Below are positions 1,894 through 26,015 of a DNA stretch of 58,133 nucleotides, one piece after another. Source of the stretch: Phycisphaerae bacterium. GTDB taxonomy: Bacteria; Planctomycetota; Phycisphaerae; SM23-33. Numbering within the stretch: position 1 is the first letter of the stretch; each line of letters starts with the position of its first letter. A program made the position numbers and the translations under genes. The DNA lies in assembly GCA_049510055.1 (NCBI GenBank), contig JBEKZI010000004.1, forward strand, positions 1 to 58,133, written 5' to 3'. Below the pieces are notes generated by a model. The model ran no database searches and was not told where the DNA came from. It saw only the letters and a list, made by a program, of their open reading frames with translations.

Positions 1894-1921
1894 TGCTGTG
1901 ACTTACGTTGCGGGAACCTTG

Positions 1922-1939
1922 ATACTGACCAGTCAGTAT
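1922..1939. promoter_or_regulatory. Probable TetR operator (perfect 8-2-8 palindrome)
   Basis: ATACTGAC-CA-GTCAGTAT read directly in the sequence. It abuts or overlaps the -10 box and predicted transcription start of the tetR-MFS promoter. Confidence 0.6.
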
Positions 1940-1966
1940 TATACTACATCCGTTTTTTGTTCTCAA
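1938..1966 (-). promoter_or_regulatory. sigma70-type promoter of the tetR-MFS unit
   Basis: Minus strand TTGAGA (1966-1961), 17-nt spacer, TATAAT (1943-1938). It sits about 45 nt upstream of the tetR ATG at 1893. Confidence 0.6.
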
Positions 1967-1983
1967 TGTCACAGGGAGGTTGT

Positions 1984-9535: not shown

Positions 9536-10591
9536 ATGCAAGGTTCCCTCCAGCGCGTTCGTGACGTGATGGCCGGCCGGCGCCCAGACCGGCCGCCGTT
9601 GTTCGACATTCTCCGCAATGACGCCGTCATCAACCATTTTTCCGGCCAGGCGCTGACGGTGGAAAACGCCGCCGAAGTGGTCTTTGCCGCCTACGCCCCG
9701 GCCCTGGACGCCACGCGGGCCACGGTCCGCCTGCCCAAGCAAGAGGACACGGGCCGGCTCCCCGACGGCCGCCAGCAGCGGGACTATCGCTGGACGACCT
9801 GGACCGCGCCCCTGCGATACGCCGACACCAAGGACTACGTCACGGCCAAGCGAAAAGTGCTGGACGCCTTCGACCCGGCCTGGACGCCCCGGAAACAAAA
9901 GTCGGTGGACGACTGGCTCGCGGCCGTGGCCGATTGCCGCCGGTGCCTGGGCGAGGTGTTCTATTTTCCTTCCAGCCGATCGGTGAACCTGACCGCCGCG
10001 TACAGCGAGGTGGGGCTGGAGCAGTTCAGCTACTTCCTGGCCGATTGCCCGGACGTCATCGACGAACTGCTGGAGACCCACACGCTGGCCGCCGAGGCCT
10101 GGATCGGCCATCTGCCGGAAGCTAGCGGCATCGAGGCGGTCTTCCTGGCGGACGACATTGCCTTCAAGACCGGCACGCTCATGAGCCCCGCCTGGCTCGG
10201 GGAGCACTACTTTTCGCGGCTGGCCCGCGTCGTCGCCGCCTGGCACGGCCGGGGCGCCAAGGTCCTGTTCCATTCTGATGGCAATCTGATGGCCGTGATG
10301 GACTGGCTGGTGGCCTGCGGCATCGACGGGCTGAACCCCATCGAGGTGGGCGCCGGCATGGACGCAGGAGCCATCCACCGCCGGTTCCCGACGCTGTGGA
10401 TGGCGGGGGGGATCGACCTGTCGCAGCTCCTCAGCCACGGCACGCCGCAGCAGGTGGCCGAGGCCGTCCGCCGCACCATCGAGGTCGCCGAGGGACGGAT
10501 CATGATCGGCTCGACCTCCGAGGTGCAAAACTCCGTCCCGCTGGCCAATTTCCTCGCCATGCGCGAGGCCGTGCTGAATTACCGCTGCTAG
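9536..10591 (+). CDS. Uroporphyrinogen decarboxylase (URO-D)-like / MtaA-CmuA-like family protein
   Basis: The C-terminal half (VLFHSDGNLMAVMDWLVACGIDGLNPIE...GGIDLSQLLSHGTPQQVAEAVRRTIE) matches the URO-D fold family. The start is uncertain (tracked ORF begins at 9422; ATG 9536 chosen). Confidence 0.7.
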   Translation: MQGSLQRVRDVMAGRRPDRPPLFDILRNDAVINHFSGQALTVENAAEVVFAAYAPALDATRATVRLPKQEDTGRLPDGRQQRDYRWTTWTAPLRYADTKDYVTAKRKVLDAFDPAWTPRKQKSVDDWLAAVADCRRCLGEVFYFPSSRSVNLTAAYSEVGLEQFSYFLADCPDVIDELLETHTLAAEAWIGHLPEASGIEAVFLADDIAFKTGTLMSPAWLGEHYFSRLARVVAAWHGRGAKVLFHSDGNLMAVMDWLVACGIDGLNPIEVGAGMDAGAIHRRFPTLWMAGGIDLSQLLSHGTPQQVAEAVRRTIEVAEGRIMIGSTSEVQNSVPLANFLAMREAVLNYRC

Positions 10592-10607
10592 GGGTCAGCT
10601 TGCCGCA

Positions 10608-12008
10608 TTATTTCTTGCCCGCCTTGCGCAGGACCGGCGTGGGGTGACCCTTCAAGTCCGCCAGACCCTTGGCCAGCTCGTCGTCCGACAGGGGATAATC
10701 GCGCAACTTGCCCTGGAGGTAGGCGTCGTAGCCGGCCAGGTCCATCAATCCGTGGCCTGACCAGTTGAATAGGATGACCTTTTCCTTGCCTTCGTCTTTG
10801 GCCTGGCGGGCCTGGTCGATGACGGCGGCGATGGCGTGCGAGGTTTCCGGGGCGGGGATGAAGCCTTCGGTCCTGGCCCAGGTGATGGCGGCCTCGAAGC
10901 ACTTAGATTGCGGATAGGATTCGGCGAGGATGAGCCCCTCGACCATCGCCTGGCTGACCAGCGGCGCCATGCCGTGATACCGCAGCCCGCCGGCGTGGGT
11001 CGCCGGAGGCACGAAACCGTGCCCCAGCGAGTGCATGGCCAGCAGGGGGGTCATCTTGGCGACGTCGCCGTGATCGTAGGCGAACGGGCCGCGGGTGAGC
11101 GTTGGGCAAGATTCCGGCTCGACGCCGACGATGTCGATCGTTTCCCCGTGGATCTTGTCGCAGACGAACGGGAAGCTCAGCCCCGCGAAGTTCGACCCGC
11201 CGCCGCAGCAGCCGATGATCACGTCCACGTGCTTCTCGCCCGCCTTGGCCAGTTGCTTCTTGGCCTCCAGGCCGATGACGGTCTGGTGCAGCAGGACGTG
11301 GTTGAGCACGCTGCCCAGGCTGTAGCGCGTCTTGCCGGTTGAGTCGGCGACGGCGGCCTCGATGGCCTCGCTGATGGCGATGCCCAGGGAGCCTGGCGTG
11401 TCGGGCATCTTGGCCAGGATGTCGCGCCCGGCTTGGGTTTCATTTGAAGGGCTGGCCACGCACTGGGCGCCCCAGACCTGCATCATCATCTTACGGAAAG
11501 GCTTCTGGTCGAAGCTGACCCGCACCATGAACACCTTGCACTCCAGGCCGATCAGGGAGCACGCGAAGGCCAGCGCGCTGCCCCATTGGCCGGCGCCGGT
11601 CTCGGTCGTCAGCCGCTGAATGCCGAACTGTTTGTTGTACCAGGCCTGGGCGACGGCGGTGTTGGGCTTGTGGCTGCCGGGAGGGGAGACGCCTTCGTCC
11701 TTGTAGTAGATTTTCGCCGGCGTGCCCAAGGCCTCCTCCAGCCGCAGGGCGCGGCGCAGCGGCGACGGCCGCCATATCCGCAGCAGCCCCAGGACCTCGG
11801 TGGGGATGTCGATCCACCGCTGGGTGGAAACCTCCTGCTCGATGATGTTCATGGGAAAGACCGGCGCCAACATCTGGGGCGTGATGGGCTTGCCGTCCGG
11901 TCCTAAAGGCGGCAGGGGAGGGTGGGGCAGGTCCGCGGCCAGGTTGTACCAACGCCGCGGCATGTCCTTTTCGTCCAGTAAGAACTTTTGTGAGGCAAAG
12001 GCACTCAT
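10608..12008 (-). CDS. trpB2: TrpB-like PLP-dependent enzyme (tryptophan synthase beta, TrpB2 type)
   Basis: 466 aa. GSHKPNTAV (PLP lysine), [20 protein letters not shown], and the TrpB2-specific long N-terminus ([13 protein letters not shown]). Confidence 0.88.
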
Positions 12009-12254: not shown

Positions 12255-12701
12255 ATGACGAGCGAATCACATCTAAGCCAATATCCAGCAGATCAGACCG
12301 GCCCGGTGAGCGGCGCCGCTGAAGAACGCGAACGCGAAAAAAGATTTTCTCCTGTGACCGCCAATCGCCTGGGAGCCGCCGGCGGCCTGGCAGCCGGTCC
12401 GCAGCGGCGCCAGAGGCCCCCCAAGCTGTACCGCATCGGCGAGGTCGTGGACTACTCCGGCGTCAGCCGGCAGACCATCCACAATTACGCCACGATGGGG
12501 CTGATCCACGAGAGCCGCTGGACGAACGGCGGCCACCGGTTGTTCGACGAGTCGGTGTTCGAGCGGCTGGACCGCATCGCGGAGATGAAGGCCGCCAACA
12601 AGTCGCTCCAGCAAATTCGCGATCACTTCGCCAAGATGGACGCCTCCCCGGCCGGCGACGGCCCGGCGGGGCAGGAGCCGCAAGACATGACGTCAGCGTG
12701 A
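12255..12701 (+). CDS. MerR-family HTH transcriptional regulator (short, no recognisable effector domain)
   Basis: LYRIGEVVDYSGVSRQTIHNYATMGLI...GGHRLFDESVFERLDRIAEMK is a MerR-type winged HTH plus the start of the dimerisation helix. It has a roughly 57-aa low-complexity N-terminus. Confidence 0.8.
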   Translation: MTSESHLSQYPADQTGPVSGAAEEREREKRFSPVTANRLGAAGGLAAGPQRRQRPPKLYRIGEVVDYSGVSRQTIHNYATMGLIHESRWTNGGHRLFDESVFERLDRIAEMKAANKSLQQIRDHFAKMDASPAGDGPAGQEPQDMTSA

Positions 12702-12783
12702 CCGACGCCAGGGCCGCCAGCCGCCGAACGTGAGGCGGTGCCTCAAGGGCGGCGAACCAAGCCCCGGTCATGGAGGACCGGAC

Positions 12784-14682
12784 GTGATAGGCAAGGACAG
12801 CGTCAAAGAAGTCGTCGGCCTGGTGCGAACCCGCCTCGCCGGCCTCAGTCGCCGGGCCCGCTGGATCGCGGCGATAGCGGCGGGGGCGGTGCTGTTCGCC
12901 GCGTTGTGGGCGACCGTAGCCGGGTTTGGAAACCAGAGGGTTCCGCTGGACACCACCGGTCTGAACGCCGCGGACCTTGCCACGGCCCGGCGGATGCTGG
13001 CGGACAGCGGCATTTCGTCTCGGCTCACGGATGGCCGGTTGATGGTCCGCGCCAAGCAGTTGGCCGCCGCCACGGAGATCATCGCCCCCCTTGCTCAGCG
13101 GCCCGAAGACGCCGCCGAGTCGCTGGCGGCGCTGGCGAAAGAGGACGACATCTGGCGGACGACCGCCCAGAGCGATAAGCGATGGCAGGCCGCCAAGATG
13201 GCCGCCCTCAGCCGGCTGGTGGAGAAGTTCCCCGCCGTGGCCTCCGCTACCGTGCTGTACGAGCCGGGCAGCCCGCGCGGCTTGGGCGGGGCTGGCCATG
13301 AGCCCACCGCGGCCGTGCGGGTCACGATGAAGCCGGGGGCGACGCTGAACCGCTCGATGGCCCTGGCCATCGCGGACCTGGTCGCCGGCAGCATCGCGGA
13401 CATGAGCGACCGCAACGTGCGGGTCATCGACGGCAGCGGGCGCAGCTACCGCTTCGACGCCGAGAGCGGCGACGAGAAGGAACTCCAACGCCGCTGCAGT
13501 ATCGAGACGTATTACCACGAAAAAGTCCACGCGGCCCTGAGCTACATCGACAAGGTGGTGATCGGCGTCACCGCCACGGGCAAGGACGATCCAGCCGCGG
13601 CGCTGGCCGTTTCGGTGGCCGTGCCGCGAAGTTATCTGGTCGCCGTCGCCCGCTCCAACGCCGCGGACCCCTCCGCCGCCGATAAGGTGCTGGACAAGAT
13701 TCGCCAGGCGGCCCAAGCCGCCGTGGCCGATCGGCCCTGCCAGGTGAAGGCGGATTGGTATTACGACGCCGAGGCCGATGCTCTAGCCGCGGCTGCGTTA
13801 TCACCGAGCGGAGCGTTCGGTTGGGGCAGCCTTCTGATGGCCGTCCTCGTCTCCTCCGTCGCCGGCGGCGGGGCGGTGCTGCTGGCGAAGCGCGTGACGC
13901 TTCGACGAGCCTCTAGGGGCGCGAAAGAACAAGATATCTCCGCCAATCCCCAGGCCGCGGAAAGCGGTAGCCCCGTCAGTCCGCAGGAGGGGCCCTGGGA
14001 TTTCCTGGCGCACCTTTCCTCTGAAGAAATCGCCTCGCTGGTCGCCTACGAGCATCCCCAGACCGTCGCGATCGTCCTGGGGCAGTTGGCGCCCGCCGCC
14101 GCCGCCGCGGTCCTTGCGGCTCTGAGCGAGGAGACCCAAGCCGCCGTCGCCCGGCGCGTGGCCGTTCTGCACCAGGTGGATCCGGTGGTGATCGCCGAGG
14201 TCGCCCGGACCCTGGCGCAGCGCGCCGCCCGTCAGGCCGCCGGCGGGCCTTCGGCGGCCGGGCCGGAAGGCCACCTGGCCGAAATCCTCCGCCACGCCGG
14301 CTATGCCACCGAGAAGGCCGTGCTGGAGGCCCTGGCCGAGCGGGCGCCTTCGCTGGTGGAGGCGATCCACCGGCGGATGTTCAGCTTCGAGGACATTGCC
14401 CAGTTGCCTTTGGACCGTTTGCAGCAGGCCCTGGCGCCGGTGGATGCCGCGGAGCTTGCGGTGGCCCTGCGGACGGCCGGCGAGGACGTCAAGGCGAAGG
14501 TCTTTGGCGCCCTGTCGTCCGAGACCCGCCGGAAGGTGCGGGAAGAGATGGAACGGATGGGGCCGGTCCGGCTCAGCGAGGTCGAGGCCGCCCAGCAGCG
14601 CGTGGCTGAGGCGGTGCGGCGAGCCGGCAGCGGCGAGTACCTCTCCGAGTCGGCCCGGCAGGAAAAACAATTGCTGGCCTGA
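12784..14682 (+). CDS. fliF/fliG: Fused flagellar MS-ring / rotor protein: FliF-like N-terminal part with FliG middle and C-terminal domains
   Basis: Two TM segments bracket about 300 aa with FliF/SctJ-like stretches. The same frame then carries EHPQTVAIVLGQL and MFSFEDIAQL...MGPVRLSEVEAAQQRVAEAVRR (FliG_M/FliG_C). GGAGG lies 7 nt before GTG 12784 (tracked ORF starts at 12730). Confidence 0.85.
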   Translation: MIGKDSVKEVVGLVRTRLAGLSRRARWIAAIAAGAVLFAALWATVAGFGNQRVPLDTTGLNAADLATARRMLADSGISSRLTDGRLMVRAKQLAAATEIIAPLAQRPEDAAESLAALAKEDDIWRTTAQSDKRWQAAKMAALSRLVEKFPAVASATVLYEPGSPRGLGGAGHEPTAAVRVTMKPGATLNRSMALAIADLVAGSIADMSDRNVRVIDGSGRSYRFDAESGDEKELQRRCSIETYYHEKVHAALSYIDKVVIGVTATGKDDPAAALAVSVAVPRSYLVAVARSNAADPSAADKVLDKIRQAAQAAVADRPCQVKADWYYDAEADALAAAALSPSGAFGWGSLLMAVLVSSVAGGGAVLLAKRVTLRRASRGAKEQDISANPQAAESGSPVSPQEGPWDFLAHLSSEEIASLVAYEHPQTVAIVLGQLAPAAAAAVLAALSEETQAAVARRVAVLHQVDPVVIAEVARTLAQRAARQAAGGPSAAGPEGHLAEILRHAGYATEKAVLEALAERAPSLVEAIHRRMFSFEDIAQLPLDRLQQALAPVDAAELAVALRTAGEDVKAKVFGALSSETRRKVREEMERMGPVRLSEVEAAQQRVAEAVRRAGSGEYLSESARQEKQLLA

Positions 14683-14694
14683 ACGAGATAAGAC

Positions 14695-15495
14695 ATGGCA
14701 CGGGTCATTAAGGCTGAAAATCAGGCGAACGCTCCCACCGACGGGGCGGTGCTGCGGCTGACGGATTTCGTCGCCGAGGCCCGGGTCGTCGTGCTGGAAG
14801 CCCGCAAGGAGGCCGCCCGCATCGTCGCCGAGGCCCGCGCCAAGGCGGAGCAGGCCGAGCAAGCCGCCGCCCGTCGCGGCTACGAGGAAGGTTTCGCCCG
14901 CGGCCGCAACGACGGCTATACCGATGGCTGCCAGGCCGGCTCGCGCCAGGGGATGGAGGCCTCAGCCGGGGCGGCCGGCGGGGCACTGTCCTGCGCTCAG
15001 CGGATTGCCGAGGAACTGGCCGCCGCCCGCGACGGACTTGTGGAGCAGGCCCGACGGGAGTTGCTGGACCTGGCCGTGGCGATGGCGGAGCGGGTCGTGG
15101 GCGTCGTGGCGGCCAGAGACGTCGCCGCCGCCCAGGCCAATCTGGTCAAGGTGCTGGAGATGGCCGGCTACGCCAAGGCCATCACGATCAAGGTCAATCC
15201 CCGCCAGCTCCAAGCCATGCGTGAACACTGCCACCAGGCCGTCGAGGCCTTGGCGATCAAGGGCCGCGTCGAGTTGGTCGGCGATCCGAGCATCAGCCCC
15301 GGCGGCGTGAAGCTGCTGGCCGGCGGCGGGCAGATCGACGCGACCATCGAAGGACAACTGGCCTACATCATTGAGGCCCTGGTCGGTCCGGCGACGACGG
15401 ACATGGGACGCTACGAGTCGCACAGCCGCGAGGAAGCAGCCGATCCGCACGGCCAAGCGGCGACGGGCGAGACGAAAGAACATGGGTGTTTTTGA
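14695..15495 (+). CDS. fliH: Flagellar assembly protein FliH (export ATPase stator/regulator)
   Basis: Position between fliF/G and fliI. Ala/Glu-rich coiled N-half and a FliH-like C-half (LLDLAVAMAERVVG...ITIKVNPRQL...GGVKLLAGGGQIDATIEGQL). Confidence 0.8.
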   Translation: MARVIKAENQANAPTDGAVLRLTDFVAEARVVVLEARKEAARIVAEARAKAEQAEQAAARRGYEEGFARGRNDGYTDGCQAGSRQGMEASAGAAGGALSCAQRIAEELAAARDGLVEQARRELLDLAVAMAERVVGVVAARDVAAAQANLVKVLEMAGYAKAITIKVNPRQLQAMREHCHQAVEALAIKGRVELVGDPSISPGGVKLLAGGGQIDATIEGQLAYIIEALVGPATTDMGRYESHSREEAADPHGQAATGETKEHGCF

Positions 15496-16873
15496 GACAC
15501 ATGCACGAGCGATGCGGCACGTTCAGCCGCTGGGCGTCAGCGGCCGCGTGAGCGCCGTCCGCGGACTGACGGTCAGCGTCTCGGACTTCCCCGCCCCCAT
15601 CGGCGCCGCCTGCCGCGTGGAAGGCATGGGCGGGGCGGTGGAGGCCCGCGTGGTGGGCTTCGCCGACGAGCGGACGCTGGTCATGCCGATGGGCGCCATG
15701 ACGGGCATCTGCCGCGGCGCCCGCGTGATCCTGACCTCCTGCCGCCAGACGGTGGCCATGGGCGAGGCCGTGCTGGGGCGGGTGCTGGACGGCGCCGGCC
15801 GGCCCATCGACGGGCGCGGGCCGGTCGCGGCCAAGGAGCACATGCCCATTTGGCCCGAGCCGCTGGCGGCCTTGCAGCGGCGGCCGATCGATCAGCCGCT
15901 GGGCACCGGCGTCCGCGCGATCGACGGCCTGCTCACCGTCGGCCGCGGCCAGCGGATGGGCATCTTCTCCGGCTCGGGCGTGGGCAAGAGCATCCTGCTG
16001 GGCATGATCAGCCGCTTCACCGCCGCCGACGTGACCGTCATCGGCCTGATCGGCGAGCGCGGCCGCGAAGTCCGCGACTTCATCGAGAAGAACCTCGGCC
16101 CCGAAGGCCTGAAGAAATCGGTGGTGGTCGTCTCCACGGGCGACGAGCCGCCGCTGCTCCGCGTGCAGGCCGGGGCGGTCGCGGCCACGGCGGCGGAATA
16201 CTTCCGCGACCGCGGCGCCGACGTCGTGCTGCTGGTGGACTCCTTGACGCGCCTGGCCACGGCCCAGCGGCAAATCGGCCTCGTGGCTGGCGAGCCGCCC
16301 ACGACCAAGGGCTACACCCCCAGCGTGTTCAACATCCTGCCGCAACTGCTGGAGCGCAGCGGCCGGACGGAACGCGGCTCGGTCACCGGCTTCTACGCCG
16401 TGCTGGCCGAGGGCGACGATCTCAACGAGCCCGTCAGCGACGCCGTCCGGGCCGTGACCGACGGGCACATCCATCTGTCGCGCGAGCTGGCCAACCGCGG
16501 CCAGTATCCCGCCATCGACTGCCTCCGCAGCGTCAGCCGCGTGATGATCGACCTGGTGGACGCCCCGCACCGCCTGGCCGCCAAGGAACTCAACCGGCTG
16601 ATGACCCTCTACGCCCAGGTGGAGGACATGGTCAGCATCGGCGCCTATCGGCCGGGCACCAGCGCGGACTTCGACCTGGCCATCAAGGCCATGCCGTGGA
16701 TCCGGTCCTTCCTGGCCCAGGGCATCGATGAGCCGGAGGCCTTCGCGGACACTCGCGGTCGGCTGCTGGAGCTTCACAAGCAGATCATGGACGTCAAGAC
16801 GTCGATGGGCGGCGCCGCCGGTTCCGGTGAGCCGGCACGGCCCGTCGGTTACGGAGAACGGAGAACGTCATGA
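15482..16873 (+). CDS. fliI: Flagellum-specific ATP synthase FliI
   Basis: Walker A GSGVGKS and Walker B VVLLVDSLTR. T3SS-ATPase motifs GERGREV, PPTTKGYTPSVF and GQYPAIDCLRSVSR. ATG 15482 overlaps the fliH end by 14 nt. Confidence 0.95.
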   Translation: MGVFETHARAMRHVQPLGVSGRVSAVRGLTVSVSDFPAPIGAACRVEGMGGAVEARVVGFADERTLVMPMGAMTGICRGARVILTSCRQTVAMGEAVLGRVLDGAGRPIDGRGPVAAKEHMPIWPEPLAALQRRPIDQPLGTGVRAIDGLLTVGRGQRMGIFSGSGVGKSILLGMISRFTAADVTVIGLIGERGREVRDFIEKNLGPEGLKKSVVVVSTGDEPPLLRVQAGAVAATAAEYFRDRGADVVLLVDSLTRLATAQRQIGLVAGEPPTTKGYTPSVFNILPQLLERSGRTERGSVTGFYAVLAEGDDLNEPVSDAVRAVTDGHIHLSRELANRGQYPAIDCLRSVSRVMIDLVDAPHRLAAKELNRLMTLYAQVEDMVSIGAYRPGTSADFDLAIKAMPWIRSFLAQGIDEPEAFADTRGRLLELHKQIMDVKTSMGGAAGSGEPARPVGYGERRTS

Positions 16874-17325
16874 GGTCGGACAAGCAGGATCGCCGTCTTT
16901 CGGCACTTTGGAGGATACGTCGCCAGGATGAGGACACATGCCGGTTGGCTTTCGAATCGGCCCGGTCGCGGGTGCATGCGGCCGAGACGCACGTGCGACG
17001 GCTGCGGGACCTGCTGGAGGTCCACACAGCCGCCGCTCGCACGGCCCTGCCGAACGATCCCGCCGCGATGGCGAGGTACCGCCAGTCGGCGGCCGAGCTG
17101 AACGCCGCCCTGGCCGATGCCAACCGTTTTCTGGCTGAGGCGAGAGTAGAACTGGAGCACCGGCGCGTGGAGCTTGAGGAAGCCATGCGCCAGCGCAAGG
17201 CAGCCGAGACATTGCAGCATCGCGAAGCGACGGCTGCGGCTTCCAACGAAAACCGCCAGGAAACCCGCGCCGCCGACGACCTGCACGCCACCCGCCAGGC
17301 CGCCAAGACTGCCTCGCAACCGTAA
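16870..17325 (+). CDS. fliJ: Flagellar export chaperone/stalk protein FliJ
   Basis: 151-aa predicted coiled coil directly after fliI, with an ATGA overlap. Size and position are typical of FliJ/SctO. Confidence 0.7.
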   Translation: MRSDKQDRRLSALWRIRRQDEDTCRLAFESARSRVHAAETHVRRLRDLLEVHTAAARTALPNDPAAMARYRQSAAELNAALADANRFLAEARVELEHRRVELEEAMRQRKAAETLQHREATAAASNENRQETRAADDLHATRQAAKTASQP

Positions 17326-17333
17326 GATCATCC

Positions 17334-17567
17334 ATGAATAAGCAAGTCAACGTGCGACTGGAGCTGGGCCGGCGGCTGATACCGGCCGCCGAGGCGTGGC
17401 GGCTGGACATCGGCGGCGTAGTGGAGCTGGACCGCCAGGCCGATGACCGCGTGGACGTGTACGCCGACGGCCGGCTCGTCGCGCGCGGACAGCCCGTCGT
17501 GGTGAGCGGCAAGTTGGCTGTTCGCATCGAGGAAATCGTCTCGCCGTATGCAGGGTCGATCAGATGA
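17334..17567 (+). CDS. fliN: FliN-like SpoA-domain protein (77 aa, bare C-ring/sorting-platform domain)
   Basis: VRLELGRRLIPAAEAWRLDIGGVVELDRQADDRVDVYADGRLVARGQPVVVSGKLAVRIEEI matches the FliN/SctQ C-terminal SpoA pattern. Confidence 0.85.
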   Translation: MNKQVNVRLELGRRLIPAAEAWRLDIGGVVELDRQADDRVDVYADGRLVARGQPVVVSGKLAVRIEEIVSPYAGSIR

Positions 17568-18157
17568 AGGCAAACGAGCCCCCAATAACTCGTTGGATGG
17601 CTGCCGCGATGATAATCGCAATCTTTGGCGCCGCCACGATGTCGGCGGCCCAGGAACTTTCTGCCCAGACAGCCCCGCCGGCCTCGGCCACCGCGTCACA
17701 GCCTGCGGCGAGCAACCCACTGGAGAGCAAACCGCTGGCCCGCGGCGATCACGGCATCGCCGCCGGCGACCTGTGGAGTTGGGTGCGGCCCCTGGCGGCC
17801 TTGGCCGTCGTGGTCGCCGTGATCCTCCTGCTGCGGGCGGTGTTGAAGCGGCTCGGACGCAGTGGCCGGATTGCCATCGGCGGGCAGGTCGTACAGGTGC
17901 TGGTTCGCTCGCGGCTGACCTCCCGCTGCGAGCTTTGCCTGGTCCGGTGGGGCAAGCGGTTGCTGCTGATAGGTCTGGGTCCTGCCGGCCCGGTGGCCCT
18001 GGGCGAAATGAGCGATCCACAGGAGGCCGCCGCCGTGCTGGCTGAGTTGGAGTCGAAGTTGAAAAAACCCGCCGGCGCCGCAAGCGGCGAGGCGATCCGC
18101 GACGCGGCGGAAAGAATCCGTGCCCGCCTGTCAAACGACGAAAGGCTGCGCGGTTGA
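17564..18157 (+). CDS. fliO: Flagellar biosynthesis protein FliO (long form)
   Basis: TM helix (VRPLAALAVVVAVILLL) followed by VQVLVRSRLTSRCELCLVRWGKRLLLIGLGPAGPVAL, the FliO core. Sits between fliN and fliP. ATGA overlap with fliN. Confidence 0.75.
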   Translation: MKANEPPITRWMAAAMIIAIFGAATMSAAQELSAQTAPPASATASQPAASNPLESKPLARGDHGIAAGDLWSWVRPLAALAVVVAVILLLRAVLKRLGRSGRIAIGGQVVQVLVRSRLTSRCELCLVRWGKRLLLIGLGPAGPVALGEMSDPQEAAAVLAELESKLKKPAGAASGEAIRDAAERIRARLSNDERLRG

Positions 18158-18984
18158 TGCGAAGGAACGCACGTCATCCTGATTCGGCACGACGGCCCGG
18201 CGCGGCCTGGCTGCTGGCTGTCGGCGTTGCTGTCGCGATGCTGTCGGCCGGGGCCGCCTGGGCCGCAAGCGGCGGGGCGGCGGCGCCCCAATCCGCGCCG
18301 GCGGGCCTGCCCAAGGTCCTGCCGGACATGCAGAACCCCTCCACGATGAGCGGCCTGGTGCAGTGGCTGCTGCTGATTACGGTCCTGGCCGTCGCGCCGG
18401 CAGTGGCGGTGATGGTCACGTGCTTCACGCGGATCATCGTCGTGCTGGGGCTGCTGCGGCAGGCGCTGGCGACCCAGCAGCTCCCGCCCAATCAGATTCT
18501 CTTCGGCCTGGCGCTGCTGATGACGCTGGTGGTGATGGCCCCGACCTACATGGCCGTGCATCAGGACGCCGTGGCGCCCTACCTGGCGGGCAAGATGGGC
18601 TGGCAGGACGCCTGGGGGGCCGCCCAGAAAGACGTGCGGGCCTTCATGATCCGCCAGATCTCCTCCGCCGGCAACGAGCAGGACGTGTACCTGTTCCTGG
18701 GCAAGGACCAAGCCGGCCAAAGCAACCTGACCTGGAGTGACGTGCCGACGCTGTCACTGATCCCGGCCTTTGCGGTCAGCGAGTTGAAGGTGGCGTTCCT
18801 GATCGGCTTTCGAATCTATCTGCCGTTCCTGGTGATCGACATGCTCGTGGCCTCGATGCTGGTTTCGATGGGCATGCTGATGCTACCGCCGGTGCTGATC
18901 TCCATGCCGTTCAAGCTGCTGATGTTCGTGCTGGCCGACGGCTGGCACCTGGTGGTCGGCACGCTGATGAAAAGTTTCCAGTGA
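18157..18984 (+). CDS. fliP: Flagellar export gate protein FliP
   Basis: Signal peptide, then TCFTRIIVVLGLLRQALATQQLPPNQILFGLALLMTLVVMAP and VSELKVAFLIGFRIYLPFLVIDMLVASMLVSMGM. TGATG overlap with fliO. Confidence 0.95.
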   Translation: MRRNARHPDSARRPGAAWLLAVGVAVAMLSAGAAWAASGGAAAPQSAPAGLPKVLPDMQNPSTMSGLVQWLLLITVLAVAPAVAVMVTCFTRIIVVLGLLRQALATQQLPPNQILFGLALLMTLVVMAPTYMAVHQDAVAPYLAGKMGWQDAWGAAQKDVRAFMIRQISSAGNEQDVYLFLGKDQAGQSNLTWSDVPTLSLIPAFAVSELKVAFLIGFRIYLPFLVIDMLVASMLVSMGMLMLPPVLISMPFKLLMFVLADGWHLVVGTLMKSFQ

Positions 18985-19007
18985 ACAACGTGAGCAAGGA
19001 GTCGACC

Positions 19008-19265
19008 GTGGACGCAAGTCAAGCCATCGACCTCGCACGCCAGGCGGCCATGCTGACGCTGGTGATCGCCGCGCCGGTGCTGGTGGTGGGGCTGATCGTG
19101 GCGCTGCTGGTGGGCGTGCTCCAGGCGGCCACGCAGGTGCAGGAGCAGACGCTCAGCTTCGTGCCCAAGATGGCGGCCATGATGCTGGCGGCGTTGGTGG
19201 TCGGCCCGTGGATGCTGTCGCGCGTCGTGGAATTCGCCAAGGAGATGTTCGGCAAGCTGCCGTAA
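19008..19265 (+). CDS. fliQ: Flagellar export gate protein FliQ
   Basis: LQAATQVQEQTLSFVPKMAAMMLAALVVGPWM is the FliQ signature. AAGGAG lies 6 nt before GTG 19008. The tracked ORF starts at GTG 18981, overlapping the fliP stop. Confidence 0.9.
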   Translation: MDASQAIDLARQAAMLTLVIAAPVLVVGLIVALLVGVLQAATQVQEQTLSFVPKMAAMMLAALVVGPWMLSRVVEFAKEMFGKLP

Positions 19266-19271
19266 ATCGAC

Positions 19272-20054
19272 ATGGATATCGGTTCGCTCAATTCGGTGTG
19301 GGTGTACACGACGGTGCTGGTGATGGCCCGCTGCGGCGGGATCTTTTTGGTGGCGCCGGTGTTCGCCCACCCGGCCGTGCCGGTTCGCCTGCGCGTGGCC
19401 ATGAGCCTGGTGGTGGGCCTGGCCGCCGCGGGACGGTTGGCGGGCGCGGCGACCCTGCCGGCCCATTGGTTGGTCGCAGGCGGGGCGCTGGCGACCGAGT
19501 TTGCCATCGGGGCAGCCATCGGCTACCTGGCGCGGCTGATATTCGTCGGCGTGGAGTTGGCGGCCATGCACGTCGGCCAGCAGATGGGCCTGGCGCTGGC
19601 CGAGGTGTTCGACCCGCTGAAGGAAGAAAGCTCCGAGGCCGTCAGCCGCCTGCTTCAGCTCACGGCGCTGGTGGTCTTCCTGGCCATCGGCGGGCATCGG
19701 ACGCTGATCGCCGCCCTGCTGGGCACGTTTGACGTGCTGCCGGCGGGCCTGGCCGCGTCGGTGTCGTGCTCGGCGGCGATGAAGGCGGCGGTGACAATGC
19801 TCGCCATGAGCTTTGTCCTGGCGCTCAAGATCGCCGCCCCGGTGCTGATCGCCATCCTGGTGGTGACCGTGGCGGACGGCCTGCTCCAGAAGACCATGCC
19901 GCAGGTGAACATCCTGACGGTCGGCTTGCCGGTGCGGGCGATGCTGGGCCTGGCGGTATTGGCCGTGAGCCTGGCGGCGATGGCCCCGCTGCTGGAAGCG
20001 GCCGTGGGAGTCCTCACGCGGCAATGGGCCGTGGCATTCCCGGCGGTGCAGTAA
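19272..20054 (+). CDS. fliR: Flagellar export gate protein FliR
   Basis: 260-aa polytopic protein with FliR-like motifs (LVMARCGGIFLVAPVF, GYLARLIFVGVELAAMHVGQQMGL) in the canonical position. Confidence 0.9.
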   Translation: MDIGSLNSVWVYTTVLVMARCGGIFLVAPVFAHPAVPVRLRVAMSLVVGLAAAGRLAGAATLPAHWLVAGGALATEFAIGAAIGYLARLIFVGVELAAMHVGQQMGLALAEVFDPLKEESSEAVSRLLQLTALVVFLAIGGHRTLIAALLGTFDVLPAGLAASVSCSAAMKAAVTMLAMSFVLALKIAAPVLIAILVVTVADGLLQKTMPQVNILTVGLPVRAMLGLAVLAVSLAAMAPLLEAAVGVLTRQWAVAFPAVQ

Positions 20055-20066
20055 ACGAAAGAACAC

Positions 20067-20855
20067 ATGGCGGACCTGCGAGAACAGATTGGCGAGCGGA
20101 CCGAGATGCCGACCCCTCTGCGTCTGGCTGAGGCCAGGCGGCAAGGGCGCGTGCCGCGGAGCGGTGAGCTGGTCGCGGCGATTGTGTGCCTGGCAGCGGT
20201 AGTGGCGGCCATCGCGATGGGCGGCGGGCTGCTCCAGGCCGCCAAGCGTCTGGTGGCCGCGATGCTGGCCGAAGCGGGCGACGTCTCCGGCGGCGGTTCG
20301 ACTTCGCTCACCGAAATCTGGAGCGGCGACGTGGCCTCGGCCGCCTGGGCCCTGGCCGGCCGGGCTGGGCTGATGCTGCTGGTTGTCGTCGCCGCAGCCG
20401 TGGCGGCCAATATCGCACAGTTCGGCCTGCTGTTTGCCGGCGAGGTGGCGGAGCCGGACTTCGCTCGCCTGTCGCCGGTGGCCGGGGTGGGCAGGGTGCT
20501 GTCGCTTCGCTCCCTCGTGCGGGCGGCCCTGGGCATCGTCAAGGTGATCGCGGTCGCCGGCATCGCCTGGTCGGCAGTGCGGGCGGCCATGCCGCGATTG
20601 ATCTCCGCCGGAAACCTGTCCGCCGCCGACTGGGCCGCCTGGACCGCCCGAGAGGTCCTGACCACGGCCCTGTGGATCACCGCGGCGCTGCTGGCCGTAG
20701 CGTTGGTGGACCTGCTCTACCAGCGATGGCAGTACCTCCAGGACCTCAAGATGACCCGCCGAGAGTTCCTGGAAGACCTGCGAAAGATGGAAAGCACTGA
20801 GCGATTGCGCCGGCCCAGGCGACGGCAATCCCAAGGCACGAACGCATGGCGATGA
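20067..20855 (+). CDS. flhB: FlhB, transmembrane domain plus linker only (C-terminal NPTH autocleavage domain absent)
   Basis: N-terminus GERTEMPTPLRLAEARRQGRVPRSGEL, 4 TM segments and the linker KMTRREFLEDLRKMESTERLRRPRRRQ are FlhB-like. The ORF stops at 262 aa and flhA starts 10 nt before the stop. Confidence 0.85.
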   Translation: MADLREQIGERTEMPTPLRLAEARRQGRVPRSGELVAAIVCLAAVVAAIAMGGGLLQAAKRLVAAMLAEAGDVSGGGSTSLTEIWSGDVASAAWALAGRAGLMLLVVVAAAVAANIAQFGLLFAGEVAEPDFARLSPVAGVGRVLSLRSLVRAALGIVKVIAVAGIAWSAVRAAMPRLISAGNLSAADWAAWTAREVLTTALWITAALLAVALVDLLYQRWQYLQDLKMTRREFLEDLRKMESTERLRRPRRRQSQGTNAWR

Positions 20856-22954
20856 ATAGTCCAACACTCAAGACCGGCACAGTGGCCCGATACCAGGGGC
20901 TGATCCTGCCCGTCGCGGTGGCCGCGATGGTGCTGGTGATCCTGGTGCCGCTGCCGCCGGAGCTGATGAACGTCCTGCTGCTGGGCAATATTGCCTTGGC
21001 GGCGGTCATGCTGCTGATGACGATCTTCGTAGCCAGCCCGCTGGAGTTCAACGTGTTCCCCTCCCTGCTGCTGGGGGCCACGCTGCTGCGGCTGGTGCTG
21101 AACCTGGCGGCCACGCGGCTGATCCTGACCTGCGGGGCCGACGGGCAGACGCTCGAAGAAGCCCAGGGGGCCGCCGGCGGCGTGCTGTGGTCCTTCGGAC
21201 AGTTCGTGACGTCCGGCTCGTTGGCGGTGGGGGCGGTCCTGTTCATGATCTTGGTGATCGTGCAGTTCGTGGTGGTGACCAAGGGCGCCGCCCGCATCAG
21301 CGAAGTGGCTGCCCGCTTCGTGCTGGACGCGATGCCGGGCAAGCAGATGGCCATCGACGCCGACCTGGCCGCCTCGCTGATTACCCCGGCCCAAGCCCAG
21401 CAGCGGCGGCAGACCGTCGCGCGCGAGGCCGACTTCTACGGGGCCATGGACGGGGCGTCCAAATTCCTCCGCGGCGACGCTGTCGCGGGTGTCCTGGTCC
21501 TGCTGGTCAACGTCCTGGGCGGCCTGTACGTCGGCATGGTGCAATACCATTGGAACCTGGCCGCCACGGCGGACCTGTTCGTCCGCCTGACCATCGGCCA
21601 GGGGTTGGTGACGCAGGTTCCGGCGTTCCTCGTGGCTATCGCCGCGGCGCTGATCGTCTCGCGGAGCAACGTCGAGGCCGATCTGAGCAAGCAAGTCATT
21701 TCACAACTCACCGCCCGCCCGCTGGCGTTGGCGATTACGGCGGCCCTGCTGGGAGCGATGGCGCTGACGTCGCTGCCGAAATTGCCCCTGCTGCTGCTGA
21801 GCGGCGGATGCCTGGGCTTGGCGCTGCTCCTGCGTCGGCGACGCGAAGCAATACCGGACCACAAAGAAGCCGCCGAACCGGCGCCGCAGCCTGCGGCCCC
21901 GGCGGCGCAAAACCTCCGCGACCTGCTGGCCGTGGAGGCTATGCGGATTGATCTGGGCTTTGCACTGATCGGCCTGGTGGATTCGCCCCAGCCGGGCGGC
22001 CTGCTGAACCGTATCGCCGCCCTGCGTCGCCAGCTCGCCACGGAGTTGGGTATCATCCTGCCGCCCATCCGCATCCGCGATAACATGGACATAGACTCTC
22101 GCGGGTATGTCCTCTGCATCCGCGGGGCCAAGGTGGCCGGCGGCAAGCTGTATCCGCGGCAGGTCCTGGCCATCCCCGGCGCGCCGGGGGACGTTGGCGC
22201 GGCGCCCGACGCCTTGATGGGCCGGCCGGCGACGGATCCGACATTCGGCGGCGAGGCGATATGGATCAGCCCCTCCCATCGCCCGCAGGCGGAGGCGATG
22301 GGCTACGTGGTGGCCGACAGTACCGACGTGCTGATGACCCACCTGGCCGAGACCGTCCGCCGCCACGCGGCCGAGCTGCTGGGCCGCCAGCAGGTGGCGG
22401 ACCTGCTGGACAACCTCAAGGCGACCGCCGCCAGCCTGGTGGCCGAGGTCGCCGCCAAGCTGACGGCCGCGCAGATTCACAAGGTGCTCCAGAACCTCCT
22501 GCGGGAGCGAGTGTCCATCCGCAACCTGGAGGGCATCCTGGAGGCGCTGTGCGACGCCGCCAGCCAGACCAACCAGGTCGAGGCGCTCACCGAGCAGGTC
22601 CGATCCGCCCTGGGCCGGTCGCTGTGCCAGCAGTTCTGTGACCGCGACGGCAAGCTGCCGTGCGTCCATTTGTCGCCGGCCCTGGAGCAGGAATTGGGCG
22701 CCTACGCGGCCGAAGGGCCGGCCTACAGCGCCGCGGGCGTGCCCCCGGCCGTGGGCAAGGCCGTCTCCAAGGCGCTGAGCGACGGGCTGGCGTCGTTTCG
22801 CCGGCAAGGGCGGCGGCCGGTCATCGTCTGTGCGCCGCAGATTCGCCCGGTGGTCCGCAAGCTGCTCGCCGGCGCCGCGCCCGAGGCGGTCGTGCTGGGT
22901 TACAACGAAATTGACTCCGTGGAAGTGGAATCGCTTGCCAGTTTAGGAATCTAA
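20846..22954 (+). CDS. flhA: Flagellar export gate protein FlhA
   Basis: 702 aa. FHIPEP motifs VTKGAARISEVAARFVLDAMPGKQMAIDADL, FYGAMDGASKFLRGDAVAG and LVTQVPAFLVAIAAALIVSR, plus a large cytoplasmic C-domain. Confidence 0.96.
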   Translation: MAMNSPTLKTGTVARYQGLILPVAVAAMVLVILVPLPPELMNVLLLGNIALAAVMLLMTIFVASPLEFNVFPSLLLGATLLRLVLNLAATRLILTCGADGQTLEEAQGAAGGVLWSFGQFVTSGSLAVGAVLFMILVIVQFVVVTKGAARISEVAARFVLDAMPGKQMAIDADLAASLITPAQAQQRRQTVAREADFYGAMDGASKFLRGDAVAGVLVLLVNVLGGLYVGMVQYHWNLAATADLFVRLTIGQGLVTQVPAFLVAIAAALIVSRSNVEADLSKQVISQLTARPLALAITAALLGAMALTSLPKLPLLLLSGGCLGLALLLRRRREAIPDHKEAAEPAPQPAAPAAQNLRDLLAVEAMRIDLGFALIGLVDSPQPGGLLNRIAALRRQLATELGIILPPIRIRDNMDIDSRGYVLCIRGAKVAGGKLYPRQVLAIPGAPGDVGAAPDALMGRPATDPTFGGEAIWISPSHRPQAEAMGYVVADSTDVLMTHLAETVRRHAAELLGRQQVADLLDNLKATAASLVAEVAAKLTAAQIHKVLQNLLRERVSIRNLEGILEALCDAASQTNQVEALTEQVRSALGRSLCQQFCDRDGKLPCVHLSPALEQELGAYAAEGPAYSAAGVPPAVGKAVSKALSDGLASFRRQGRRPVIVCAPQIRPVVRKLLAGAAPEAVVLGYNEIDSVEVESLASLGI

Positions 22955-22957
22955 GTT

Positions 22958-24134
22958 ATGGAAACGAAAATCTACTGTGCTCCCTCGATGGCCCTGGCTC
23001 TGGCGGAGGTGAAGAAGGATCTCGGCCGGGACGCCGTGATTCTGCACACCCGGCAGTTCCGCAAGGGCGGACTGTTCGGCCTCGGCGGCCGAGCGATGTG
23101 GGAGGTCACCGCCTCGGCCCACGTAAACGTGCCGCAGCGCGTGCCGGCAGGACGATATGTCCCCGTGCCGTCGACGCCGGCCGGCGACGCGGCCGTCGCT
23201 CTTGACGCCACCAGCACGGTCGAACCGCTGGGTGACGTGCTGAGCCAGAGGATGGGCGAGATCCACAACATGGTGGCCCGGCTGCTGCGAGCCTCCAGCG
23301 GCTTGGCCGCCGGCCGATTGAGCTTGCCCCTGCCGGTGGCCATGCCTGAGGAGTTGGCCAGCTGGCGGGCGCACCTCCTGCGGCAGGAACTCGCGGAAGA
23401 GACAGTCTCCGAATTGTTAAGCCAACTCCAACAGGACCTCACGCCCGCCGAGATGTCGCAGGATTCGGCCGTGCGGGAGCGGCTGGTGGACCTGATCGCG
23501 TCGCGCATCCCCGCTTCGGACGTGAGCATTCCGGCGGCGACGGGCCGGCCCCGCGTGGTCGTCCTGGTCGGTCCGACGGGCGTGGGCAAGACGACGACCA
23601 TCGCCAAGCTGGCCGCCCGGCACAAACTGTCCGCCGGCCGGCGAGTGGGCCTGGTGACCATCGACACGTACCGCATCGCGGCCGTCGACCAGCTCAAGAC
23701 CTACGCCCAGATCATCGAGGTGCCGTTGCGGACGGTCCTGAGGCCGGCGGAGCTGGCCGAGGCGATTACGTCCATGGCGGGACTGGACGTGGTGCTCATC
23801 GACACCGCCGGCCGAAGCCCCACCGACGCTCCGCGGCTACGACAGATGCAGGAGTTTCTCCAGGCGGCCCAGCCGGATGAGGTGCACCTGGTCGTCTCGG
23901 TGACGGTGGGGCCGAGCTGCGCGGCACGCGTCCTTGAGAATTTTATGCCGCTCGGCGCCAACCGGTTGATCGTATCAAAGCTGGACGAAGCCAGCACCTT
24001 CGGCATGGTGCTGAACGTCGCCTCGGCGGCCAAGGCGGCGTTGAGCTTCGTGACCACAGGCCAAGAGGTTCCGGACGACATTGCTCCGGCCAACCCGCGA
24101 CGGTTGGCCGAATTAATTGTGGGAGAAGGGACGT

Positions 24135-24145
<11 letters not shown>
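22958..24145 (+). CDS. flhF: Flagellar biosynthesis SRP-type GTPase FlhF
   Basis: GPTGVGKTTTIAKLAA, DTYRIAAVDQL, IDTAGRS and SKLDE are G1-G4 of the SRP/FlhF family. Confidence 0.93.
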
Positions 24146-24986
<841 letters not shown>

Positions 24987-25078
24987 CAACTTCTAAAATA
25001 TGGAGTTATAGGCAAGGATGCCTCAAAAAACGTCCATATCCTCCCCAGAGAACCTCGAAAAAATCTTAAGAATTCCAG

Positions 25079-25106
25079 TTGACATGGACGTTGATATACA
25101 TAGAAT
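25079..25106 (+). promoter_or_regulatory. sigma70-type promoter of fliA
   Basis: TTGACA (25079-25084), 16 nt, TAGAAT (25101-25106), in a 235-bp AT-rich gap. Confidence 0.6.
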
Positions 25107-25129
25107 GGATAATATACATAATATGGATA
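25094..25129. repeat. Tandem 18-nt direct repeat overlapping the fliA -10 box
   Basis: ATATACATAGAATGGATA (25094-25111) is immediately followed by ATATACATAATATGGATA (25112-25129), 16/18 identical. Confidence 0.8.
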
Positions 25130-25220
25130 GTTTGGGAAATATCACTGAGTGGACTGGCTTCTGAGGACTCGAGGCTGGTTAGAGATAACCAAGGCGACCA
25201 TCCAAGGAGTGACAGCAACC

Positions 25221-26015
25221 ATGAGGATGAGCACTGTAAATACCGGCACAACGGATCAGGTCCAGCAATGGTGGAAGGCGTTCCGAAAGAACGGCGATCA
25301 GGAGTCGCGGAACCATCTCATGGAACACTACCTTCCGATCGTCAAATACACCGCCGAGCGGTTGTACTCCAAGCTGCCGGAGGAGGTAGACATTGACGAT
25401 TTGATTTCCACCGGCATCTTCGGGTTGATGGACGCCATCGCGGCCTTCGACGAGAAGCGCGGCGTGAAGTTCGAGACCTATTGCGCGCCGCGAATCCGCG
25501 GGGCCATGCTGGACGAGCTGCGCTCGATGGACTGGGTTCCGCGGCTGGTGCGCAGCCGGGCCCACAAGCTCAACGAGGCCAAGCACGAGCTGGAGGCGCA
25601 GCTCGGCCGCCGTCCCGACGAAGGGGAATTGGCCAAGAAGATGCGGATGCCCATGTACGAGTTCCGCAAGCTTCAGCGCGACGCCCGGGCGGTGGGGCTG
25701 GTCAGCCTCAGCCGCAAGTGGTTCGAGACCGACTCGAACAAGGATGTCCGCGAGATCGACGTGCTGGAGGACAAAAAGAGCGACGATCCGCTGCGGACGG
25801 CGACGCGAAAGGACATCAAGGACCTCATCACCCGCGGCCTCAGCCGGGCCGAGCGGCTCATCATCATCCTGTACTATTTCGAAGAGATGACCATGAAGGA
25901 AATCGGCGAGACGCTGGACCTGTCCGAAAGCCGCGTCAGCCAGATGCACTCGGCCATCCTGGAGCGGCTGCGCCGCCAGTTGGAGAAGCGGAAGAAAGAA
26001 CTGTCGGCGGTGTGA
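25221..26015 (+). CDS. fliA: RNA polymerase sigma-28 factor FliA/WhiG
   Basis: YLPIVKYTAERLYSKLP, DDLISTGIFGLMDAIAAFD (region 2), and ERLIIILYYFEEMTMKEIGETLDLSESRVSQMH (region 4). AAGGAG lies 11 nt before ATG 25221. Confidence 0.93.
   Translation: MRMSTVNTGTTDQVQQWWKAFRKNGDQESRNHLMEHYLPIVKYTAERLYSKLPEEVDIDDLISTGIFGLMDAIAAFDEKRGVKFETYCAPRIRGAMLDELRSMDWVPRLVRSRAHKLNEAKHELEAQLGRRPDEGELAKKMRMPMYEFRKLQRDARAVGLVSLSRKWFETDSNKDVREIDVLEDKKSDDPLRTATRKDIKDLITRGLSRAERLIIILYYFEEMTMKEIGETLDLSESRVSQMHSAILERLRRQLEKRKKELSAV

Follow-up and report, generated by a model that had tools for sequence, protein, structure and literature searches.

A natural FlhB without its C-terminal domain in a flagellar export operon of Phycisphaerae

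Autocleavage of FlhB/SctU proteins at an Asn-Pro-Thr-His (NPTH) motif is held to be universal and essential in type III secretion, and the C-terminal domain (C-domain) of these proteins is regarded as the place where rod and hook subunits dock. Here we analyse the flhB gene of a peat-dwelling Phycisphaerae bacterium, carried on a stretch of 58,133 nucleotides (contig JBEKZI010000004.1 of GenBank assembly GCA_049510055.1; hereafter the window), whose product stops before this domain. In described export gates, the transmembrane (TM) part of the protein, FlhB-TM, is wrapped around FliPQR on the cytoplasmic side and may contribute to gate opening; the C-domain, FlhB-C, receives rod and hook subunits in a hydrophobic pocket and serves as the target of the FliK ruler (PMC7911332). 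Non-cleaving mutants of the family (FlhB N269A and P270A, and the SpaS, YscU and EscU equivalents) have a late-export defect or form polyhooks (PMC7911332), and non-cleavable Salmonella FlhB N269A is stuck in the early mode (PMC13344023).

The nearest experimental counterparts of the protein described here come from Salmonella. Chevance et al. (mBio, 2026) found that a stop at flhB codon 258, or the deletion Δ270-383 (flhBΔCCD), together with loss of Flk leads to constitutive, FliK-independent late export (PMC13344023). In flhBΔCCD, assembly is poor and export of the hook protein is abolished (PMC13344023), since the early-substrate pocket is part of the CCD. The authors concluded that the cleaved C-domain is an inhibitory lock, physically ejected by FliK before filament export (PMC13344023). 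The FlhB of the window has a near-identical architecture, with FlhB-TM and part of the linker and no cleavable C-domain. Unlike the Salmonella forms, which are engineered or selected mutants, its state is natural, conserved across a clade and found in an otherwise intact operon.

FlhB-C is also known as a stand-alone protein, as in H. pylori FlhX (HP1575), P. putida PP_4329 and B. subtilis YlqH, and such proteins can partly replace FlhB function. They belong to the 'FlhB-like' model TIGR00789 and represent the complementary half, that is, the part missing from the FlhB of the window. In the organisms known to us they coexist with a full-length FlhB, and we know of no genome in which FlhX is the only copy of the C-domain. 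The FliR-FlhB fusions of the Clostridium type (NF009411) are likewise a natural rearrangement of FlhB within the export-gate operon; unlike the protein studied here, which covers only positions 264-501 of the 610 in that model, they retain the whole C-domain.

The open reading frame (ORF) at 20067..20855 (+) begins with ATG and encodes an FlhB of 262 amino acids (aa). Pfam PF01312 (Bac_export_2) matches it with an E-value of 4.5e-51 and 174.5 bits (gathering score 24.4); residues 9-256 correspond to profile positions 1-237 of 335, and the last ~98 positions (238-335), which make up the C-domain, are unmatched. The NCBIfam model TIGR00328 flhB is covered at positions 2-242 of 348 with 143.4 bits, well under its curated equivalog cut-off of 349.25. 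Alignment with PDB sequences pairs residues 6-255 with Salmonella FlhB 4-247 and with Vibrio FlhB 7-241, so the product, whose end falls near Salmonella-equivalent residue 254, stops about 15 residues short of Asn269-Pro270. In a six-frame motif scan, neither the product nor any other real ORF of the window contained NP[TEAS]H; the single match of the scan was spurious and lay in a 39-codon non-gene.

The AlphaFold model of the protein has a predicted local distance difference test (pLDDT) score of 74.9 and contains four long helices (33-74, 87-119, 147-183 and 186-248) arranged as two hairpins. The fourth runs on as a linker helix to residue 248, and residues 249-262 are disordered. Foldseek returned a sole significant fold match in the PDB, 6s3l_K, the FlhB of the Vibrio FliPQR-FlhB gate (E-value 1.7e-4). 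The original prediction, made from the letters of the DNA, had read the product as an FlhB N-terminus, four TM helices and a linker followed by a stop, with NPTH and the C-domain missing, and the profiles, the structural model and the PDB alignments agree with it in every particular. The parts of the gene and the gene that follows it are as follows.

20067..20855 (+), flhB: TM/gate domain and linker without the C-terminal NPTH domain (PF01312, TIGR00328, Salmonella alignment, 6s3l_K fold)
20067..20162 (+), N-terminal cytoplasmic segment of FlhB, aa 1-32, conserved ERTEMPTPLRLAEARRQGRVPRS (homologue conservation, Salmonella alignment)
20163..20423 (+), TM hairpin 1, helices aa 33-74 and 87-119 (AlphaFold secondary structure, FliPQR-FlhB fold match)
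20424..20504 (+), FlhB loop (FlhB-L), aa 120-146, PDFARLSPVAGVGRVLS (conservation, Salmonella alignment)
20505..20720 (+), TM hairpin 2, helices from aa 147-183 and from 186, including D215 (AlphaFold model, 36hu_K1 alignment)
20721..20810 (+), post-TM linker helix, aa 219-248, QRWQYLQDLKMTRREFLEDLRKMESTERLR, the start of FlhB-CN (homologue conservation)
20811..20855 (+), disordered basic tail, aa 249-262, RPRRRQSQGTNAWR, and TGA stop (pLDDT ~48-55)
20846..22954 (+), flhA, 702 aa, full length (FHIPEP, E-value 3.6e-223, residues 28-691)

With its N-terminal segment, four TM helices, loop, TM4 Asp, LKMT(R/K)xE linker and position between fliR and flhA, the protein resembles canonical FlhB/SctU proteins (YscU, EscU, SpaS, Spa40). 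Of the features by which FlhB is recognised, the N-terminal segment and four helices of the family profile, the loop with the TM4 Asp and the gene position are all present; the ~100-aa FlhB-CC domain and the NPTH motif are not, and the TIGR00328 score lies below the cut-off. Unlike canonical members, it thus has no ~100-aa C-domain, no NPTH site, no early-substrate pocket and no FliK/SctP target.

Conservation follows the same boundary. Across 20 short homologues, R11, T12, R19, R24, G27, V29 and S32 are invariant, and the N-terminal motif ERTEMPTPLRL…G.V.RS is invariant or nearly so among homologues; P30 aligns with Salmonella P28. The loop PDFARLSPVAGVGRVLS, which in solved gates wraps the cytoplasmic face of FliPQR (PMC7911332), aligns with the Salmonella loop PKFSKLNPLPGIKRMFS, and R134, G140 and R148 in this region are conserved among homologues. 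D215 corresponds to Salmonella D208, the buried Asp of TM4, and is nearly invariant; the Salmonella D208A substitution disrupts motility (PMC7911332). In the linker, Y218, Q219, D226, L227, T230 and R231 are invariant and conservation stops at E242 among the same 20 proteins. Beyond this point the tails of the short homologues are unconserved and rich in R, G and A, and the tail of the window protein lacks the beta1 strand (VVVTN), which in canonical FlhB comes ahead of NPTH. By these patterns, the gate part of FlhB (N-terminal motif, loop, D215 and linker) stays under constraint.

The flhB TGA occupies 20853-20855 and the flhA ATG lies at 20846, as had been noted from the sequence, giving a 10-nt overlap that suggests translational coupling. 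With flhA beginning within the 3' end of flhB, no space is left for further flhB coding sequence. The FlhA itself aligns to Salmonella FlhA 18-678.

This junction bears on whether a sequencing or assembly frameshift or indel has merely shortened a normal flhB. Frameshifted FlhBs are known in error-prone assemblies, although nothing specific points to one here. JGI, ENA and Logan assemblies carry the exact 262-aa protein on 11 contigs, of which one measures 1.07 Mb, and it is present in at least six different samples; the metagenomes in which the organism occurs are those of peat and wetland. Across 19900-21300, Logan contigs from four peat runs show no indel at depths up to 66x. A hidden Markov model (HMM) of the FlhB C-domain, built locally from full-length homologues, found no match in six frames of the 58-kb window, so that no remnant of the domain was detected in any frame, and no FlhB-C is coded in the ~9 kb past either window end along the 1.07-Mb JGI contig Ga0427938_0000002, where flagellar genes of any kind are absent; together these make up the ~77 kb examined around the operon. 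Dozens of divergent homologues share the architecture. In a real frameshift (locus L131), by contrast, FlhB and FliR lie in adjacent pieces, each of which still matches its Pfam family. These observations refute an artefact.

Other loci did carry signs of such errors. A seeming stand-alone, NPTH-bearing FlhB-C on a 256-kb contig (P0176) was rejected as a frameshifted FlhB from an error-prone assembly in which FliR is split too. At 9881-11104 of CAVOUO010000009.1 (L040), the FlhB-C HMM match runs over two reading frames, probably a frameshift in a long-read metagenome-assembled genome (MAG). A low-depth contig from a co-occurring relative (run X2, record 6) matches window 20720-20779, the linker, and then diverges (...KRMEGDSSIR...); it shows that the same peat samples harbour sister strains or species in which the short-FlhB linker is similar.

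The short form is widespread. At least 20 homologues, down to 37% identity, are short FlhBs: they measure 250-277 aa and terminate 20-40 residues past the DLKMTRRE linker. A scan of GTDB species representatives with two peptide patterns yielded 36 loci, all in MAGs, and 12 species-level MAGs of Phycisphaerae/Planctomycetota among them have a short FlhB. In none of these 12 is an FlhB-C coded in any frame of the operon flanks (up to 10 kb each side). One further MAG (L014) encodes a full-length FlhB in which NPHG replaces NPTH, and canonical NPTH FlhBs occur in Hydrogenedentota, in Phycisphaerales that are more distant and in others. A profile of the short FlhBs was also searched against 1.84 billion cluster representatives (50% identity), and the best 150 were analysed. 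The C-domain is missing in 86 of these 150, with lengths clustering at 249-277 aa.

In the window, flhB belongs to a compact operon with the order MerR, FliF-FliG fusion, FliH, FliI, FliJ, FliN, FliO, FliP, FliQ, FliR, FlhB, FlhA, FlhF, FlhG and FliA/WhiG sigma factor. The same layout occurs in relatives with a short FlhB (L007, L008, L011 and others) and in relatives whose FlhB is full-length but degenerate (L009, L014); it is not shared by Phycisphaerales with canonical FlhB. The full-length relatives that share the operon have TWPG (P0018/L009) or NPHG (L014) instead of NPTH, and a full-length FlhB on a contig too short to view the operon (P0023) has CADG. Among the best 150 representatives, the ~30 closest full-length ones, which were assigned to the clade by similarity and not by operon context, carry SPDG, APGG, APDG, HPSG, DPHG, AKAG and others, and their C-domains score 29-102 bits. 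Canonical NPTH/NPTE/NPVH proteins score lower on the short-form profile but reach 102-149 bits on the C-domain HMM. NPTH is thus kept in none of the full-length FlhBs of the clade that were examined, a few with operon context and ~30 by similarity. In this natural absence of NPTH they resemble the laboratory non-cleaving mutants, and they differ from them in that the non-cleaving state is fixed over many lineages of the clade.

The degenerate C-domains retain the fold signature …VVvaap.GlAVAlRY…aPRV.AkG…GVPVVED..LA..L…VAE.LAyA. Their mean identity is 0.35, as against 0.42 for the N-domains of the same proteins; in canonical Phycisphaerales FlhBs the C-domain is the better conserved, at 0.64 versus 0.39. 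Many otherwise canonical FlhBs, placed lower by the short-form profile and some of them from Planctomycetota, have NPTE, NPVH or NPEH (P0283, P0308, P0311, P0319, P0325, P0103, P0112, P0024/L010 and others), and these variants imply that the His of the motif is not universally kept and that Asn-Pro is.

A neighbour-joining tree of FlhA alone places the compact-operon clade as sister to canonical Phycisphaerales, and all 200 bootstraps recover it as monophyletic, whereas the short-FlhB forms by themselves are monophyletic in 1 of 200, because two full-length degenerate members fall among them. This pattern implies repeated deletion, and the C-domain has probably been lost several times within the clade. 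Taken together, the comparisons indicate that the short FlhB is a real, inherited deletion of the end of FlhB-CN and all of FlhB-CC, and that the missing C-domain is a trait of a monophyletic clade of Phycisphaerae and not of a single genome. The weight that the original prediction gave to the missing domain was well placed. A literature search found no report of a naturally C-domain-less FlhB.

Our preferred reading, to which we assign a probability of about 50%, is that the FlhB-C cleavage switch is unused in this clade, with FlhB serving as a gate subunit and substrate choice being made elsewhere. The faster change of the C-domain and the absence of NPTH from the degenerate forms show an order of events in which loss of the site came first, relaxed constraint second and recurrent deletion last. 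The ancestor of the clade had lost the Asn-Pro autocleavage site, after which the C-domain came under relaxed constraint and was deleted in most descendants. FlhB would act as a gate subunit only, and no cleaved and ejected FlhB-C would select between early (rod/hook) and late (filament) substrates. Substrate order might instead be set at the FlhA C-ring with chaperones, by a FliA-dependent transcription hierarchy or by another factor. In Salmonella terms, the apparatus would be a natural FlhBΔCCD in which early substrates are docked by another route. Because non-cleavable and C-domain-less forms replace each other in close relatives, comparison with the Salmonella mutants suggests that FlhB-C no longer decides substrate class in the clade; either the task has moved elsewhere, or a separately encoded C-domain has taken over.

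These were the two explanations offered in the original prediction, a C-domain supplied in trans and an apparatus working without the canonical switch. The clade-wide decay of NPTH strengthens the second and narrows the choice, with the first still a serious rival. Loss of the switch is favoured because no orphan FlhB-C was found near the operon in 13 genomes, because a search seeded from the clade gave no orphan attributable to it, and because the short FlhBs have neither the beta1 strand nor a conserved docking element.

Several points weigh against it. The search for FlhB-C covered ~77 kb here and the flanks in relatives, and other phyla commonly have stand-alone FlhB-Cs. Since hook protein is not exported by Salmonella FlhBΔCCD, a flagellum without FlhB-C would need an alternative route. 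Flagellation and motility of the clade are putative, and the tree is a neighbour-joining tree of a single protein. Each MAG of the compact clade has one FlhB locus by patterns that do recognise canonical Phycisphaerales FlhBs, but this is weak evidence, coming from a two-pattern scan of MAGs. A stronger version of the reading, in which the clade builds working flagella with no FlhB-C anywhere in the genome, and early docking and the switch are wholly independent of FlhB-C, is more tentative; docking and switching would there presumably fall to FlhA, to FliK or to a new factor.

Supply of the C-domain in trans would account for the decay and subsequent loss of the cis domain equally well. In such a split system, FlhB-C would be a separate small protein encoded elsewhere, either of the FlhX/YlqH/TIGR00789 type or an FlhB-C with its own beta1 strand. 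Docked non-covalently on the gate, it would provide the early-substrate pocket and the FliK target, and the redundant cis domain would decay and be deleted; under the ejection model, the separate C-domain would correspond to the cleaved product, so that autocleavage would be unneeded. Stand-alone homologues with an NCBIfam model of their own (TIGR00789) make this plausible, as does the need of Salmonella for FlhB-CCD in early-substrate export. The H. pylori FlhB truncation rescued by FlhX in the work of Wand et al. 2006 reportedly kept the beta1 strand and the NPTH loop. By this measure the window protein does not look like one half of a split FlhB: after residue 248 its tail is disordered and basic, with no VVVTN-like strand, and the short FlhBs in general are without the strand, the NPTH loop or any conserved docking element.

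A real family of orphan FlhB-Cs does exist in flagellar clusters and is abundant in soil and peat metagenomes. Its members are TIGR00789-like, 92-115 aa long, and start just past the NPTH position (L047 10001-10303; L049-L128). A metagenome scan with these orphans recovered 293 relatives from soil and peat; none of the best 80 of the 293 lies on a contig with the operon of the present organism. The orphans belong to another lineage, with a separate 507-aa FliF and a neighbouring sigma factor 30-34% identical to that of the window, as against 73-89% within the clade. We would guess at a high-GC (guanine-cytosine) soil phylum, for example basal Actinomycetota, after an mBio paper on actinobacterial FlhX. 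A search with the degenerate C-domains of the clade itself gave no orphan attributable to it, and the ~77 kb here and the flanks of the 12 related MAGs are likewise devoid of FlhB-C. We hold a split system to be a serious rival, less probable than the unused switch of our preferred reading. A search with a mixed FlhB-C profile returned mostly fragments at contig ends from a single abundant Planctomycetota lineage and was uninformative on orphans. In two of the orphan clusters (L047, L048), FlhB-C lies directly downstream of, and overlaps, an unannotated 205-aa ORF, which may be FliK-like, compare the fliK2-flhX pair of P. putida.

The remaining genes of the operon are listed below, with flhB and flhA as given above.

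12255..12701 (+), MerR-family regulator, operon head (Pfam MerR_1, synteny in relatives)
12730..14682 (+), fused fliF-fliG, called as 632 aa from 12784 (Pfam YscJ_FliF, FliG_M and FliG_C)
14695-15495 (+), fliH (Pfam FliH)
15512-16873 (+), fliI (Pfam ATP-synt_ab and T3SS_ATPase_C)
16870-17325 (+), fliJ (Pfam FliJ)
17334-17567 (+), fliN, 77 aa (Pfam FliMN_C)
17564-18157 (+), fliO (Pfam FliO)
18154-18984 (+), fliP (Pfam FliP)
18981-19265 (+), fliQ (Pfam Bac_export_3)
19272-20054 (+), fliR (Pfam Bac_export_1)
22958-24145 (+), flhF (TIGR03499, 211 bits against a cut-off of 174)
24135-24986 (+), flhG (Pfam)
25221-26015 (+), fliA/whiG-type sigma factor (TIGR02479 FliA_WhiG, 257 bits against a cut-off of 189.6)

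Judged by its FliO, the torque domain of FliG-C, FlhF, FlhG and FliA, the operon encodes a flagellar type III secretion system, in which fliH, fliI and fliJ (14695..17325, +) make up the export ATPase complex. The gene set also prompts a further explanation, namely that the operon no longer makes a canonical hook-and-filament flagellum and serves a single-class exporter or a simplified structure that needs no switch. Such a reduced apparatus would fit the streamlined operon, with its FliF-FliG fusion without FliF-C and FliG-N, its 77-aa FliN and its lack of FliM, and the operon of one relative (L016) that is without fliHIJ and fliN. No rod, hook, filament, fliM or fliK gene was found in the window or within ~9 kb past each end, which would also suit it, but flagellar genes are often dispersed over several loci. 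The absence of fliK from the operon, pointed out in the original prediction, holds for the whole window and means little, because the rod, hook and filament genes are absent there too. FlhF, FlhG and the FliA/WhiG sigma factor, regulators specific to flagella, are kept at 48-89% identity across the clade, and the torque-generating FliG-C domain is kept as well. Cultured Phycisphaerae are motile with a single flagellum (PMC13514998), their FlhB type being unassigned. On balance we consider a reduced or repurposed apparatus unlikely.

The FliF-FliG fusion matches the NCBIfam models only at positions 138-270 of 555 (fliF) and 112-320 of 338 (fliG). Fusions of ~612-650 aa are found in L007-L009, L011, L013-L018, L025, L028 and L029 as well as in the window; the fusion is kept throughout the compact-operon clade and missing from canonical Phycisphaerales loci. 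In it, a covalent link stands in for the FliF C-terminus and the FliG N-domain, which normally bind each other. The literature that we found on FliF-FliG fusions concerns engineered ones only. The FliN of the window is a bare SpoA/FliMN_C domain, and no fliM is present in the operon or the ~77 kb examined. In L016 (JAXIHJ010000079.1), the fusion is followed straight by fliO-P-Q-R-flhB, with no fliH, fliI, fliJ or fliN between.

A MerR regulator, an unusual partner for an export operon, heads it in every member of the clade, with 60-89% identity over the aligned part. A 48-aa ORF at ~25018-25164 (+), in the gap that separates flhG from fliA, is called in two JGI assemblies and has no Pfam match; it may encode a candidate small flagellar protein, for example an anti-sigma factor. 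The same gap in L009 and L010 holds small ORFs of 63 and 90 aa, also with no Pfam match. At 1-3257 (-) of L010, beside the P0024 flagellar operon, lies an FtsH homologue with an intein (weak Pfam Intein_splicing match in the AAA domain).

The naturally C-domain-less FlhB is, by all appearances, an unreported variant of a known export-gate protein. The clade offers natural material that bears on the 2026 ejection model (PMC13344023): relatives that share one operon have either non-cleavable full-length forms, which would be 'locked early' in Salmonella, or, in the majority, C-domain-less forms, which would be 'locked late'. If a stand-alone FlhB-C exists as the sole copy in these genomes, a separately made lock could replace autocleavage, in support of the ejection model. 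If no FlhB-C is encoded in the genome, early-substrate recognition and switching would be possible by a route independent of FlhB.

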